From Arsenophonus sp. (GTDB lineage: Bacteria; Pseudomonadota; Gammaproteobacteria; Enterobacterales; Enterobacteriaceae): DNA of 64,000 bases. Shown in pieces: positions 48,844 to 53,406 of the stretch (position 1 is its first letter; the number at the start of each line of letters is the position of its first letter). Where the stretch lies: contig CP198939.1 in the NCBI GenBank assembly GCA_052401645.1, forward strand, positions 1,227,651 to 1,291,650, in the 5' to 3' direction. The translations under genes and the position numbers were made by a program. The notes below the pieces were generated by a model that saw only the letters and a program-made list of their open reading frames with translations, did no database searches and was not told where the DNA came from.

Positions 48844-49602
48844 ATGAAAGTTACTAACTACTACAAAGTAGTGTCAACAATGTTTGTCTTATTACTAATC
48901 TCAATAATTTCTTTTTCTAATGTATTTGCTGGTGATACAGCTAATTTTACTATATCAGGTAGATTTCTCCCAACTACATGCAATATAATATTATCTAAAA
49001 ATAACATTGATGTTGGTAATATTAAGTATAGAGAACTTCAAATAAGAAATACGAACAATAAACTAATAGAAAGAGAATTGTCTCAGAATGTTGGATTTTA
49101 TGACAACATTGAAAAGACAACACTAATAGTTGAATGTGATAATTTAACATCTGTCGGTTTTACTGTTACTGATAATAATAGTTCTTATGCTCCACTTAAT
49201 TTCATTAAAAATATAGATAGAGAAGGATCTGATTTATCACATGCATTTGGACTAAAATCTATTAGTGGCCTCACTGCAGGTTCTAAGCTTGGTGGTTATT
49301 TTTTTGAATTTACTAAACCACAAGTCATTGGAGCAGAAGGAAAAGATGTTAATAAAAATTTCAATACTGGTTTTATAGATTCTAAAATAAGCAATGCTAG
49401 ATGGATAAAGAATAAAATATCTGGTGATTTAACACTATCAAAAATATGGACATATACTGATACGATTGATCCAGTAAAGGCAAAAATATTTAAAGTTGAT
49501 TTAAAACCTAATCTTTTTTTTTACTATGATAGTACTAAACGTGATCTAACAGATGAAATTACTTTTCAAGGTTCAGCAACATTTACTATCTTTTATATTT
49601 AG
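48844..49602 (+). CDS. secreted fimbrial-type subunit, atypically large (252 aa); probable major pilin of a chaperone-usher system, possibly the DUF1120/beta-fimbrial type
   Basis: AAGGTGA Shine-Dalgarno 5 nt before the ATG. Signal peptide ...SFSNVFA|GD. The N-terminal stretch GDTANFTISGRFLPTTC has alternating hydrophobics before the first Cys, which looks like a donor strand. The second Cys lies in LIVECD. The C-terminal beta-strand GSATFTIFYI* is typical of pilins. It is the first gene of a chaperone-usher operon. Confidence 0.75.
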   Translation: MKVTNYYKVVSTMFVLLLISIISFSNVFAGDTANFTISGRFLPTTCNIILSKNNIDVGNIKYRELQIRNTNNKLIERELSQNVGFYDNIEKTTLIVECDNLTSVGFTVTDNNSSYAPLNFIKNIDREGSDLSHAFGLKSISGLTAGSKLGGYFFEFTKPQVIGAEGKDVNKNFNTGFIDSKISNARWIKNKISGDLTLSKIWTYTDTIDPVKAKIFKVDLKPNLFFYYDSTKRDLTDEITFQGSATFTIFYI

Positions 49603-49637
49603 TATTACAAGATAATAATTAACTTTAAAGCGGCCAC

Positions 49638-49662
49638 GACTACTCTTTATATAGTCTTTTTT
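49638..49662 (+). terminator. weak hairpin plus T6 between the pilin gene and the chaperone gene (possible partial terminator or attenuator)
   Basis: GACTA (49638-42) pairs with TAGTC (49652-56) across a 9-nt loop and is followed by TTTTTT (49657-62). It sits in the only G+C-containing part of the 105-nt intergenic region (aaagcggccacgac...). Confidence 0.3.
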
Positions 49663-49707
49663 CAAGTAATAATCATTTATGATATTAATAACAAGGAAAT
49701 TCTTATC

Positions 49708-50412: not shown

Positions 50413-50413
50413 T

Positions 50414-52804
50414 ATGAAAAAGCACCTAATTTTAGGTCGTTTTATTTTTTTATTGGTCATATCTGTAACAGATAGAATAGCTCAATCAATAACTATGTTT
50501 GATACAGATATTTTACGAGCACGAGGTATTCCTGATTCTGTCGCTATCTATTTACAAGGTTCTTCTCGATTCTATCCAGGAATTAATCATCCCACATTAG
50601 TGGTTAATGGTAATAAACGTGGTACTATACCAGTTACATTTAATAACAAAGGTAACTTATGTGTAAATGATATATTTTTAAAAGCTGCAGGGATATTTAT
50701 ACCAAAATCAAATGAATTATTAACTGTCAAAGATCATATTTGCAAATCATTTCCAATTGGCATTAATGTTAAATTACAACCAGGACTTAATCGTGTTGAG
50801 ATATTAGTTCCACCTCAGTGGATTGATAATAATGCAACTAAAAAAAGGTATGTCAATGGTGGAAGCGCGGCACTACTTAACTATAATTTTTACATTACTA
50901 GTAGTAATAGCGGTTTAAATAAGCGATCTAACAAATTTTATGCTTATACTGAAAGCGGATTTAATTTTGATAATTGGATTGTACGTAGTTATGATTCATA
51001 TTCTAGCCAATGTGATAGTACTAAGTTTCAACATCAGTCTGCCTGGATACAACGTACTTTTAACTCATTAAAATCAACGTTACAAGTCGGACAGCTCACT
51101 CTTAATAACCAATTATTTTCAGCACCATCGTTCAATGGAATTCAAGTGATGCAAGAAAACGCATTAATAAAAACAAATAACAATGTTCGAGTCATCGGAA
51201 TTTCATATTCAAATTCAATTGTTAAAGTACATCAGGGAGGTATATTAATTTATTCAACACTTGTACCTTCTGGAAAATTTATTTTAGATAACTTACCATT
51301 AAATAATTTCTCACAGGATTTAGAGGTAACAGTTATTGAAAATAATGGTTGGAAACGACGCTTTATTGTTTCTGCATCGTCATTCATATATAATTTTACA
51401 CCTATACAAGAGAGTTGGACATTTGCTGTAGGGCAACCTCGTAATACACGAAATGGATTAAATAATCTAAAAAGCTATGGATTTATCACAGCTAGTTTTC
51501 CTATAAAAACCTCGCCCAGTAGTAACATTACTACTGGGATAATGTTAGCACAGCATTACACATCTGCTGGACTAAATGCTAAAATGAGATTATGGAAAGG
51601 CACATCAACATATCTACGTTTTCTCGCTGCTAAAGATAGACGCACAGGTACAAAAGGAATTATTACACAGGCTGGACATAGCATGGCGTTAGGAGATACA
51701 TTATTAGCTACTTTAAGTACTTCTTTTTACACTCTTGGTTTTCGCTATCTTACAGATATTCCTCAGTCTAACGTTTCACGTCATAATCAACAACAAAGAT
51801 TTTATAGTGCAAATCTTGGATGGAATAATAAAATTTTAGGATATTTTTCTATTGGTTTAATTAGAACAAAGCGGTTTGATGATACTACTGAAAACTATCC
51901 AACATTAAATTGGAGTCGCAATATTGGTTCAGCTCATGTCTCACTAAATATATCATCACATAATAATGAACATGTAGATAATATGTACTATCTGAATGTT
52001 AATTTACCTCTAGGTAAAACCTATACAAATTTCTCTGCTAATAAAGAAGGTAATAATACCAGTATATCTGCTAATATTAATCATAAAATTAGCGATATTA
52101 TTAGTTATAGTATAGGTACTTCCGTTACTAATAACAAATACCATGACTTTGATGGTTCAATTTATTTACAGTCACGATATGGTCGCCTTTACGGAAATTA
52201 TAATTATAATGGTCATGATAATCATGCTTGGTCAGTTAGTATGAATGGAAGTATAATACACGATGGTTATGGTATGCTTTTCTCGCCATATAGTGTACGT
52301 GATACTTTTGGTGTTATAAGTGTTATTGGACTCGATAATGCACAAATAGCAACATCTGCAGGTACAGTATGGACAAATAAAAATGGACGTGCTGTAGTTC
52401 CATCAGTTACCCCATATAATGAATCACATGTTGAATTAATTAATCAGGGTTTACCACGTAATGTTGAAGTAAATAATCTTCGTAGTATCACTAAAGCTAG
52501 TCGAGGTTCTGTTAGTAATTTTAGTTTTAAAGTCAAACGAAATAGAAAAATATTACTACAAGCTACCGATCAGTATGGTAATTTATTCCAACAAGGTATG
52601 GCTGTATTAGATAAGAATGGACGCTATTTAAGTATCACCGGCGCAGATAGTGATATTTATTTAGATAGAATACATATTAGAAATGGTCTTCTTATTGAAG
52701 ATGATAAGGGAAATCGTTGCACATTAAGCTTAAGAGTAAACACAAAACAATTAAAAGAAGATGAACCTTATGAAATAGTAGCTATACCTGCAGTTTGTCG
52801 ATGA
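50414..52804 (+). CDS. outer-membrane fimbrial usher
   Basis: 796 aa. The N-terminal usher pattern is FDTDILRARGIPDSVAIYL...FYPGINHPTLVVNGNKRGTIPVTF...GNLCVNDIFLKAAGI. The body is long and rich in beta-strand-type sequence. A C-terminal Cys pair is present (CTLSL...PAVCR*). It starts 1 nt after the chaperone stop. Confidence 0.9.
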   Translation: MKKHLILGRFIFLLVISVTDRIAQSITMFDTDILRARGIPDSVAIYLQGSSRFYPGINHPTLVVNGNKRGTIPVTFNNKGNLCVNDIFLKAAGIFIPKSNELLTVKDHICKSFPIGINVKLQPGLNRVEILVPPQWIDNNATKKRYVNGGSAALLNYNFYITSSNSGLNKRSNKFYAYTESGFNFDNWIVRSYDSYSSQCDSTKFQHQSAWIQRTFNSLKSTLQVGQLTLNNQLFSAPSFNGIQVMQENALIKTNNNVRVIGISYSNSIVKVHQGGILIYSTLVPSGKFILDNLPLNNFSQDLEVTVIENNGWKRRFIVSASSFIYNFTPIQESWTFAVGQPRNTRNGLNNLKSYGFITASFPIKTSPSSNITTGIMLAQHYTSAGLNAKMRLWKGTSTYLRFLAAKDRRTGTKGIITQAGHSMALGDTLLATLSTSFYTLGFRYLTDIPQSNVSRHNQQQRFYSANLGWNNKILGYFSIGLIRTKRFDDTTENYPTLNWSRNIGSAHVSLNISSHNNEHVDNMYYLNVNLPLGKTYTNFSANKEGNNTSISANINHKISDIISYSIGTSVTNNKYHDFDGSIYLQSRYGRLYGNYNYNGHDNHAWSVSMNGSIIHDGYGMLFSPYSVRDTFGVISVIGLDNAQIATSAGTVWTNKNGRAVVPSVTPYNESHVELINQGLPRNVEVNNLRSITKASRGSVSNFSFKVKRNRKILLQATDQYGNLFQQGMAVLDKNGRYLSITGADSDIYLDRIHIRNGLLIEDDKGNRCTLSLRVNTKQLKEDEPYEIVAIPAVCR

Positions 52805-52824
52805 GTCAAGAAGAGGAATATGAA

Positions 52825-53406
52825 ATGAAATCAATAATATTATTAACTATCATTAATATAATCATTTATTTTATAATAAATCAACCTTACGCATTAGCAT
52901 ATGATAATTGTAATATCAGTATTTCACCTCTTCAAATCAATTATGGTGATATAACATCCGATTTATTATATGATCAAGCAGAGAAAAATGATGAAGGGTT
53001 TATATTGACTCGATATGCTCTATTAGAAATAACTTGTATTAACAAAAAAGAATTTCAAATATACTTACATTCCTCTAAAGTAAATAATGAATATTTCAAT
53101 GCTAAAAATAATGTTAAAGTATTTATAATTGCTGATGAAATTCAAGCGAATGAGATGGATAAAGAATACATTATATTTTTGACCACAATGGAAGGACATA
53201 AAATAGATTTTCGAGTAAATAGTGAATGGATTCCAGGACAGATATTAGAAATCAATAAACCATTAACTAAACTAGCTGTTAAAATAAAAATAAAATTTTT
53301 GATACCTTATAACATATTTAAAAATGAAACTTCATTGAATTTTCAAAAGATATTTAATTTCTTACTTCGCTCAAAAATAAAAAATCAAGAAAAAATCGAT
53401 ATTTAA
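52825..53406 (+). CDS. second secreted pilin-like subunit (193 aa), paralogous to the first and lacking an N-terminal extension; candidate tip subunit or adhesin
   Basis: The track ORF starts at a TTG at 52795. I prefer the ATG at 52825, which is preceded by GAGGA and begins a clean signal peptide MKSIILLTIINIIIYFIINQPYALA|YDNC. The first-Cys block CNISISPLQINYGDITSDLL aligns with CNIILSKNNIDVGNIKYREL of the first subunit. The second Cys lies in LLEITC, against LIVEC in the first subunit. Confidence 0.7.
   Translation: MKSIILLTIINIIIYFIINQPYALAYDNCNISISPLQINYGDITSDLLYDQAEKNDEGFILTRYALLEITCINKKEFQIYLHSSKVNNEYFNAKNNVKVFIIADEIQANEMDKEYIIFLTTMEGHKIDFRVNSEWIPGQILEINKPLTKLAVKIKIKFLIPYNIFKNETSLNFQKIFNFLLRSKIKNQEKIDI

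Follow-up and report, generated by a model that had tools for sequence, protein, structure and literature searches.

The four-gene operon described here lies on the forward strand, at 48844–53406, of a 64-kb stretch of DNA (hereafter the window) from an Arsenophonus metagenome-assembled genome (MAG) of approximately 2.04 Mb, where it is bounded by rpoE on its 5′ side and by ung on its 3′ side. In order, the gene products are a putative subunit of the DUF1120 type, a chaperone that resembles PapD, an outer-membrane usher and a YhcE-like subunit; all four open reading frames (ORFs) are intact (Table 1). Our data indicate that the locus is very probably a working chaperone-usher system that is held in place by selection. 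The best explanation, which we consider probable, is that it is a functional β-class operon of the gltF-yhcA-yhcD-yhcE type in the eroded genome of a vertically transmitted cicada symbiont.

Table 1. Features of the operon and its surroundings; positions are those of the window.
Feature	Coordinates	Strand	Basis
ORF1, putative GltF/YhcF-like (DUF1120-type) pilus subunit, 252 amino acids (aa)	48844..49602	+	profile comparisons
ORF2, periplasmic PapD-like chaperone, YhcA (β) type, 234 aa	49708..50412	+	PapD_N 1.3e-18; NCBIfam PRK09918
ORF3, outer-membrane usher, YhcD (β) type, 796 aa	50414..52804	+	Usher hidden Markov model, PRK15304, neighbor-joining tree
ORF4, YhcE-like secreted subunit without N-terminal extension	52825..53406	+	PRK15301, hhalign
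rpoE, upstream boundary gene	44021..44596	-	NCBIfam RpoE match 1.2e-87
ung, downstream boundary gene	55374..56048	+	NCBIfam uracil-DNA glycosylase match 4e-105
Conserved upstream region, candidate promoter and 5′ leader including AAGGTG	48611..48843	+	alignment to distant lineages
Weak hairpin GACTA/TAGTC with 9-nucleotide loop, then T6, 3′ of ORF1	49638..49662	+	remnant of relatives' terminator-like hairpin
Inverted repeat, left arm, decayed	47602..47839		74% over 239 bp to reverse complement of right arm
Inverted repeat, right arm	54113..54345		pairs with 47602-47839

The intergenic gaps measure 105, 1 and 20 nucleotides, values that are exact only if ORF4 starts at the ATG at position 52825. 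The mechanical call of ORF4 begins at TTG 52795 and overlaps the usher gene, and the ATG at 52825 has GAGGAA upstream. Shine-Dalgarno motifs were read from the sequence before each gene (AAGGTG for ORF1, AAGGA for ORF2, AGGA for ORF3 and GAGGAA for ORF4). Sec signal peptides were judged by eye, with no predictor used, and were called at all four N-termini (...SNVFA/GD in ORF1, ...LISRA/NH in ORF2, ...RIAQS/IT in ORF3 and ...PYALA/YD in ORF4, the slash marking the called junction). A preliminary description of the locus, made from the letters of the window alone, had listed four same-strand frames with these gaps, a Shine-Dalgarno motif for each gene and Sec-type signal peptides, and each of these points was borne out, the coordinates and gaps with ORF4 taken from ATG 52825.

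ORF3 matched the Usher model (PF00577) at 4.6e-74 over profile positions 1–549 of 549, PapC_N at 29.5 bits (cutoff 27) and PapC_C at 17.4 bits, which is under the cutoff of 27, and its C-terminal Cys pair (C769/C795) is invariant in eight homologs. Against the NCBIfam families, it scored 505 bits with PRK15304, under the subfamily cutoff of 723, and 160 bits with the next family (PefC/AfrB); YhcD scores 1273 bits with PRK15304, with its runner-up families in the same order. ORF3 and YhcD are 28.7% identical over their full length. In a neighbor-joining tree of ushers built without the α, κ and σ types, the window usher joined the YhcD-containing (β) set with 100% bootstrap support and stood apart from FimD (γ1) and HtrE (π). 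Ushers from cicada Arsenophonus make up a single clade in this tree (100% bootstrap), and those of two bacteria with normal G+C content, which carry complete or nearly complete operon loci (L011 and L013; ERR13868582, ERR13948493), lie just outside it.

The chaperone match of ORF2 to PapD_N covers residues 23–138, and PapD_C was matched only at E 0.039, under its cutoff. Over its full length the protein scored 210 bits with NCBIfam PRK09918 (cutoff 183), the family in which YhcA scores 320 bits, and it is 31% identical to YhcA. In classical PapD-like chaperones, Arg8 and Lys112 anchor the C-terminus of the subunit. When ORF2 was aligned with FimC and YadV, these positions were found to be Ser and Pro, as they are in YhcA (4113–4787 of the E. 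coli locus): FimC has TRVIY and RIKLYYRP, ORF2 has TSAIII and NIPLIVQP, and YhcA has TSVLLV and DLPVLIHP. Because the Ser/Pro pair is common to ORF2 and the β prototype YhcA, it counts against the application of "classical" mechanistic detail and not against membership in the β class, which, judging from these residues, may anchor subunit C-termini in another way.

ORF1 has a signal peptide, an N-terminal extension that would serve as donor strand, a Cys46–Cys98 pair and a penultimate Tyr. A direct Pfam scan gave no match of ORF1 to PF06551 (DUF1120) at E values up to 1. When a profile of ORF1 homologs was searched against 1.84 billion representative proteins, it recovered 49 remote relatives, 44 of which are PF06551 proteins, and nine also match PF00419. 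Comparison of the ORF1 family with a DUF1120 set that included GltF and YhcF, using hhalign, gave a probability of 99.8% (E 5e-30) over the full length, in an alignment that includes the Cys pair as well as the N-terminal strand (..ANFTISGRFLPTTC) and, at the C-terminus, ..GSATFTIFYI. The match of ORF1 to NCBIfam PRK15303, the best family of GltF, is weak (1.7e-3), and its identity to GltF is approximately 24%. The best sequence matches of the ORF1/DUF1120 profile in the PDB were FimG, FimA and PapF, at E values of 2e-4 to 0.7. We regard ORF1 as a putative DUF1120-type pilin and the candidate polymerizing (major) subunit.

The mature ORF4 protein, of approximately 168 residues, begins 3–4 residues ahead of Cys29 and has its second Cys at position 71, and its N-terminus and that of mature YhcE both follow the pattern ..C-N-I-S..I-(D/N)-Y-G. 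All six ORF4 orthologs matched NCBIfam PRK15301, the family of YhcE, weakly (best 3.3e-5, far under the cutoff of 226), and hhalign gave a probability of 81% for the ORF4 family against YhcE. After the ORF4 family had been enlarged with YhcE and the L011 and L013 homologs, it matched DUF1120 over its first 85 residues with a probability of 94.5% (E 8e-8), and a gap of 11 residues falls exactly at the DUF1120 donor strand. Sequence searches with the ORF4 family gave no Pfam fimbrial match, no lectin-domain match and no PDB match. The C-terminal tail after ..LNFLL (window 53340–53406) differs by lineage in length and sequence, with 0 to approximately 25 extra residues. The C-terminal region of YhcE is called variable among strains of enterotoxigenic E. 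coli (ETEC) in the legend to Figure 8 of a study of that locus, the running text of which attributes the variation to yhcF and regards the role of YhcE as unclear (PMC5216030). As pilin-related acceptors without a strand to donate, ORF4 and YhcE would, by the logic of the pathway, find only the distal end of the fiber open to them, and ORF4 is read here as a putative distal cap or adhesin. In our judgment, the chances that ORF4 forms the tip and ORF1 the shaft are about evenly balanced. There is no further ORF 3′ of ORF4; tblastn with the ORF1 protein on the loci (E ≤ 1e-5) gave a match to the upstream ORF1 gene alone and to no second copy on the 3′ side, and the L011 and L013 loci likewise end at the ORF4 homolog. 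The protein identities proposed in the preliminary description are upheld by these comparisons: the usher and the chaperone by model matches (PF00577 and PapC_N; PapD_N and PRK09918), the DUF1120-type pilin, as a probable assignment, by the profile-profile alignment, though the Pfam model misses ORF1, and the pilin-like last product in the more specific form of a YhcE-like relative of the DUF1120 family.

The conservation of the operon was examined in related genomes. A 22-kb region of the window is colinear, at 92% identity, with the 2.02-Mb chromosome of Arsenophonus sp. ER-QJ5-MAG3 (ER-QJ5), and ORF4 is 100% identical in three near-identical Arsenophonus sp. MAGs of approximately 2.04 Mb; PLAkaem, SUIform, ET-YP4 and ET-KM2 are MAGs of more distant relatives. 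The operon is intact in ER-QJ5, PLAkaem, ET-YP4 and ET-KM2, where it lies between rpoE and ung-grpE-nadK, and the usher is 93% identical to that of the window in ER-QJ5 and 64% identical in the other three. Contamination or misassembly was rejected in view of the 22 kb of colinearity with the ER-QJ5 chromosome and of the presence of the region in an independent Logan assembly. Arsenophonus of Platypleurini cicadas (accessions JBHEQS01–JBHEQW01) is vertically transmitted, and at least four independent acquisitions of it have been inferred (PMC12627099); the PLAkaem and SUIform accessions fall within this range. Over window positions 40486–62400, four diverged cicada lineages share both the insertion site and the extreme A+T-rich non-coding architecture. 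Given these inferred acquisitions, the shared insertion means either that it predates them or that some of them go back to a common symbiotic ancestor.

Selection on the four genes was estimated with the Nei-Gojobori ratio of nonsynonymous to synonymous differences (pN/pS). For the concatenated genes it was 0.35 against the closest relative (Fisher p = 3e-12), compared with 0.22 for rpoE, ung and grpE of the same pair. Over all comparisons the values were 0.35–0.39 (p 3e-12 to 5e-87) for the operon and 0.22–0.33 for rpoE/ung/grpE, with pS of approximately 0.5 in the deeper comparisons, so that dS is near saturation there. The chaperone is the most constrained gene (0.19–0.26), followed by ORF1 (0.24–0.40), the usher (0.35–0.39) and ORF4 (0.51–0.69), the least constrained. 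Between the window and ER-QJ5, the flanks differ by 5–8% substitutions and 4–7% gap columns, whereas the 4.4 kb of operon ORFs differ by 3–5% substitutions and nine gap columns, all multiples of three. The retention of the operon is real and selected, and the constraint on it is ordinary, similar to that on the neighboring housekeeping genes. The purifying selection claimed in the preliminary description therefore stands, with all four genes intact in four lineages and a ratio well below 1; its being "strong" does not, because the level is that of housekeeping genes and ORF4 is relaxed. The operon passes the check that the preliminary description had proposed, by which a frameshifted or missing operon in close relatives, with dN/dS near 1, would have told against it. 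Since related cicada symbionts keep the operon under purifying selection, the fiber is probably still used.

An inverted repeat brackets the operon (Table 1). It scored 132 bits, compared with 74 bits for the best of 100 dinucleotide shuffles, and its arms reach 695 bp in ER-QJ5 (7247–7917 and 13276–13929 of that locus); in ET-YP4 and ET-KM2, flank matches are in direct orientation. A search with nhmmer did not recover the inverted repeat in the window and found only the orthologous copy. The repeat was rejected as a member of a dispersed insertion sequence (IS) family, as the other blastn matches in the window were at most 77 bits (shuffle range) and no transposase remnant was found; of the repeat matches within the window, the bracketing pair alone is convincing. 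It may be the scar of an old IS or of a duplication, which would fit the other locations of the operon in other lineages.

Copies of the genes also occur elsewhere. A scan of a genome collection found, outside the cicada Arsenophonus MAGs, only a contig of a Sodalis MAG (Sodalis sp. Tcar), which carries the chaperone gene and an usher gene truncated at approximately 365 aa. Symbiopectobacterium sp. Eva_TO has an orphan ORF1 homolog (8001–8753 of its locus) among IS/transposase and prophage genes. No close homolog was found in other Arsenophonus species, an absence that is suggestive only because the searches rely on shared words and patterns, and in the literature we found nothing that joins Arsenophonus with fimbriae or ushers, or DUF1120 with fimbriae. 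Together with the bracketing repeat, and with the other sites and the duplication in the SUIform lineage, these scattered copies and the L011 and L013 loci of normal G+C content are what would be expected if the operon were intact by chance or as a recent arrival, carried in late by a mobile element through horizontal transfer, for example, with no selection acting on it. We consider this extremely improbable: the insertion site is the same in four diverged lineages with usher identities of 64–93%, the cicada copies form a single fully supported clade (100%), the G+C content of the operon (0.27–0.33) equals that of the core genes, pN/pS is 0.35 (p 3e-12), and the ORFs are essentially free of indels where the flanks are not. 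The shared rpoE-ung site in four other lineages and the core-like G+C content likewise agree with the view of the preliminary description that the operon is not a recent import.

The symbiont of Suisha formosana (SUIform) carries two partial copies of the operon at other sites (contig 12, 10001–13025; contig 1, 8408–12406). The copy between gmk and prs consists of ORF1, chaperone and usher and has lost ORF4; the copy adjoining ndh and mfd consists of usher and ORF4 and has lost ORF1 and the chaperone, of which faint ORF1 remnants are seen upstream. In the tree, the ushers of the two copies pair as sisters (77% bootstrap). The arrangement of the copies may reflect subfunctionalization after duplication or two co-binned strains. 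An intact usher in both copies, each of which lacks other genes, and the low constraint on ORF4 could also be taken to mean that a single component is kept, for example the usher as an outer-membrane channel, and that the rest is drifting to loss. This is highly improbable, as the two copies jointly supply all four genes, constraint is strongest on the chaperone (pN/pS 0.19–0.26) and not on the usher, and five other genomes carry all four genes intact. We know of no activity of an usher without chaperone and subunits.

The surroundings of the operon are eroded. The left flank (44597–48843, 4247 bp) and the right flank (53407–55373, 1967 bp) have a G+C content of 0.11–0.14, and the longest ORF in either is 51 aa. 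As the non-coding DNA never stays open for more than approximately 50 codons, an ORF of 796 aa is no chance event. The flanks contain no tRNA gene according to ARAGORN and no credible Rfam match, the sole hit (PreQ1, E 0.8) falling within ung, and neither the ORF list nor tblastn with E. coli proteins revealed a gene for a regulator or recombinase in them. ORFs of at least 110 aa, which comprise 19 core genes and the four operon genes, make up approximately 36.5% of the window. The 19 are iscS, suhB, glyA, nadE, purL, tadA, acpS, pdxJ, era, rnc, lepB, lepA, rpoE, ung, grpE, nadK, bamE, ratA and smpB, and the operon is thus the sole non-core locus within the 64 kb, of which approximately 60% is non-coding. 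What the preliminary description had said of the setting is confirmed on these points: the position between rpoE and ung, flanks of 4.2 kb and 2.0 kb that are free of ORFs at about 12% G+C (from NCBIfam matches and the ORF list), the non-coding share and the status as only accessory locus within the window, and the lack of a dedicated regulator or recombinase in the flanks. It had also taken neighboring genes to have decayed there. When E. coli RseA, RseB, RseC, NadB, TrmN, SrmB, YfiE, EamB and GrcA were compared by tblastn with the flanks of the window and of four relatives, no match was found at E ≤ 0.05; with no pseudogene remnants detectable, the former presence of these E. coli-type genes in the flanks cannot be shown.

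Two further observations concern the neighboring genes. The rpoE gene is kept, and the 3.5 kb in which rseA, rseB and rseC would be expected is free of ORFs (region 40529–44596) and shows no match to the E. coli Rse proteins; with no rseABC match beside rpoE, sigma-E would be without its anti-sigma factor. A transfer-messenger RNA (tmRNA) gene with the tag peptide AKDDNNYALAA lies at 61434–61805, directly 3′ of smpB, as expected.

In the 4.2-kb left flank, strong alignments to distant lineages persist only in the rpoE-adjacent stretch and in the approximately 230 bp that precede ORF1. The identity of this upstream block is 76% in ET-YP4, 76% in ET-KM2, 71% in PLAkaem and 72% in contig 1 of SUIform, in which the operon is at another site. 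That the block can be aligned even in the relocated SUIform copy points to a conserved regulatory region. Its core reads TATCGAAACGATCGATTAATTTCATTTTATTTTTTAT in the alignment. This G/C-containing core, also given as TATCGAAACGATCGAT, has a GATC site in four lineages (PLAkaem, ET-YP4, ET-KM2 and SUIform). The GATC core may serve for methylation or for the binding of a regulator and be in decay in the lineage of the window. A scan for sigma-70 promoters and terminators gave 48 sites compared with 46 expected and is hence uninformative in such A+T-rich DNA, and no sigma-E-like GGAACTT-N16-TCAAA motif was seen by eye in the conserved block. After ORF1 (window 49603–49707), PLAkaem, ET-YP4, ET-KM2 and SUIform have a hairpin of the form AAGACGG-loop-CCGTCTT, and locus L011 has AGGGCAG/CTGCCTT, each followed by a T-rich stretch. 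The folding z-scores of this hairpin are −1.3 to −4.3 in the relatives, compared with +0.8 in the window and −0.3 in ER-QJ5. A similar hairpin lies 3′ of the gene for the major subunit in the Pap and Fim operons.

Several of the observations weigh against the reading of the locus as a functional β-class operon. In terms of structure, the AlphaFold2 (AF2) model of ORF1 was poor, with a predicted local distance difference test (pLDDT) of 52 from a 6-sequence alignment, and that of ORF4 was unusable (pLDDT 40, from 2 sequences). A Foldseek search of the PDB with the ORF1 model gave nothing at E ≤ 0.001, and its top hit, the PapG pilin domain at E 0.02, was treated as no evidence. With models of low confidence and no significant Foldseek match, the pilin folds are read from sequence profiles alone, and for ORF4 the likeness to pilins is confined to the first 85 residues. 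The usher remains under its subfamily cutoff, and ORF2 is without the classical invariant Arg8/Lys112 pair, so that textbook details of subunit binding may not apply. In terms of selection, ORF4 is weakly constrained, its pN/pS of 0.66 against the closest relative not being significant, and the deeper comparisons suffer from the near-saturation of dS. In terms of regulation, the upstream core is partly decayed in the window and in ER-QJ5 (GAAATGATAGAT), with the GATC gone, and the pairing of the hairpin after ORF1 is lost in the same two genomes; the partly degraded core and hairpin could be the beginning of decay. Lastly, a yhc knockout in ETEC left adherence to Caco-2 cells unchanged (PMC5216030).

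If the locus is a functional β-class operon, we infer the following course of assembly. All four products would leave the cytoplasm through Sec and have their signal peptides removed by signal peptidase I, the gene of which (lepB) is kept in the window. In the periplasm, the ORF2 chaperone would use donor-strand complementation to fold and cap both subunits, and the ORF3 usher would be placed in the outer membrane, bamE and rpoE also being kept nearby. The usher would take ORF4 first, as an acceptor domain without a donor strand can occupy only the distal end, and would then polymerize ORF1 through its N-terminal extension by donor-strand exchange, which would result in a thin ORF1 fiber capped by ORF4.

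The fiber could serve for attachment to host cells while the symbiont is outside them, on its way from the fat body or bacteriome through the hemolymph to the epithelial plug cells of the ovariole, or for entry into host cells. Cicada Arsenophonus does leave the fat body or bacteriome, cross the hemolymph and enter the egg via the epithelial plug cells (PMC11165832). In view of this extracellular passage, attachment to host cells or entry into them can reasonably be hypothesized. A role in host-cell adhesion or transmission is plausible, and we propose it tentatively. The narrower proposal, that the β-class fiber is the organelle of attachment or entry in transovarial transmission with ORF4 as tip adhesin or invasin, is put forward with more doubt; the cells that it targets may be the ovariole epithelial plug cells, the fat body or the bacteriocytes. 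The main rival to adhesion is a role in coating or aggregation, in which the fiber would be made but would carry no host adhesin and would form a protective afimbrial coat or thin sheath, or would hold the symbionts to each other or to the co-transmitted Sulcia and Hodgkinia. A passage in PMC5216030, citing Nuccio and Baumler (2007), predicts β loci to be afimbrial or thin-fibered because they have no recognizable two-domain tip adhesin, and the small size of ORF4 (approximately 168 mature residues), its lack of a lectin-domain match and the unchanged cell adherence of the ETEC yhc knockout (PMC5216030) are in line with this, as is the movement of cicada Arsenophonus with the other symbionts into a "symbiont ball" (PMC11165832). 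The sequence gives nothing that separates a coat from an adhesin, and the absence of a donor strand, the variable C-terminus and the faster evolution of ORF4 fit an exposed, ligand-facing tip at least equally; we consider a coat unlikely.

The β-class pili are the least studied class of chaperone-usher systems. The yhc locus is the prototype of this class, for which neither production nor adhesin activity has ever been shown (PMC5216030), in agreement with the statement of the preliminary description that pili of this type are functionally uncharacterized. Genome erosion acts here as a natural screen: the non-core DNA of 64 kb has decayed and the operon alone survives, in several cicada lineages and with housekeeping-like constraint. 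This is the strongest indirect indication to date that a β-class system has a useful function. Transovarial transmission of Arsenophonus in Platypleurini cicadas offers a concrete setting for a test, and the reading of YhcE-type proteins as caps without a donor strand, which was made from sequence, can be checked in E. coli. Should the fiber prove to be an organelle of transmission, this would be the first function for any β-class chaperone-usher system, and one of few examples in which a pilus is preserved as an essential factor for symbiosis despite decay of approximately 60% of the genome.

The window locus can be compared with several known systems. With the Fim (γ1) and Pap (π) pili it shares a chaperone that resembles PapD, an usher divided into N-terminal, barrel and C-terminal regions, and subunits, exported by Sec, with a penultimate Tyr and a donor strand at the N-terminus, the strand being predicted in the window. 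Unlike them, it has no two-domain lectin adhesin, no adaptor subunits and no regulator of the fimB/fimE or papI/papB type; its usher scores 100 bits in the FimD family compared with 505 in the YhcD family, and its chaperone lacks Arg8/Lys112. The Afa/Dr fibrils are tipped by AfaD/DraD, a single-domain invasin that lacks a donor strand of its own and is complemented by that of the major subunit. The arrangement suggested for ORF4 on an ORF1 fiber would resemble this by analogy only, as the Afa/Dr usher belongs to another clade and no sequence similarity was found. The Mad fimbriae of Photorhabdus are chaperone-usher pili that are needed for transmission of the symbiont to its nematode host and are expressed from an invertible promoter. 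They belong to another clade and to a free-living, culturable bacterium, and no such switch is present at the window locus; they are a precedent for a chaperone-usher fiber that serves symbiont transmission and not pathogenesis.

The closest likeness is to E. coli Yhc. The two loci share the gene order of subunit, chaperone, usher and YhcE-like gene, and the best NCBIfam families of the four products (PRK15303, PRK09918, PRK15304 and PRK15301) are those of GltF, YhcA, YhcD and YhcE. Both have a subunit of the DUF1120 type, a probable assignment in the case of ORF1, a chaperone with Ser/Pro at the Arg8/Lys112 positions, and a YhcE-like protein without a donor strand and with a variable C-terminus. 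In contrast to the E. coli locus (gltF-yhcA-yhcD-yhcE-yhcF), with which identity is 24–31%, there is no yhcF-like fifth gene in the window, the usher is under the NCBIfam cutoff, and the Pfam DUF1120 model does not detect ORF1. The window usher also lies on a separate deep branch of insect-symbiont sequences, and its locus stands in an eroded genome. In summary, the operon is a divergent addition to a known, uncharacterized class and not a new kind of system, and its interest lies in the evidence of selection and in the experimental opening that it provides.

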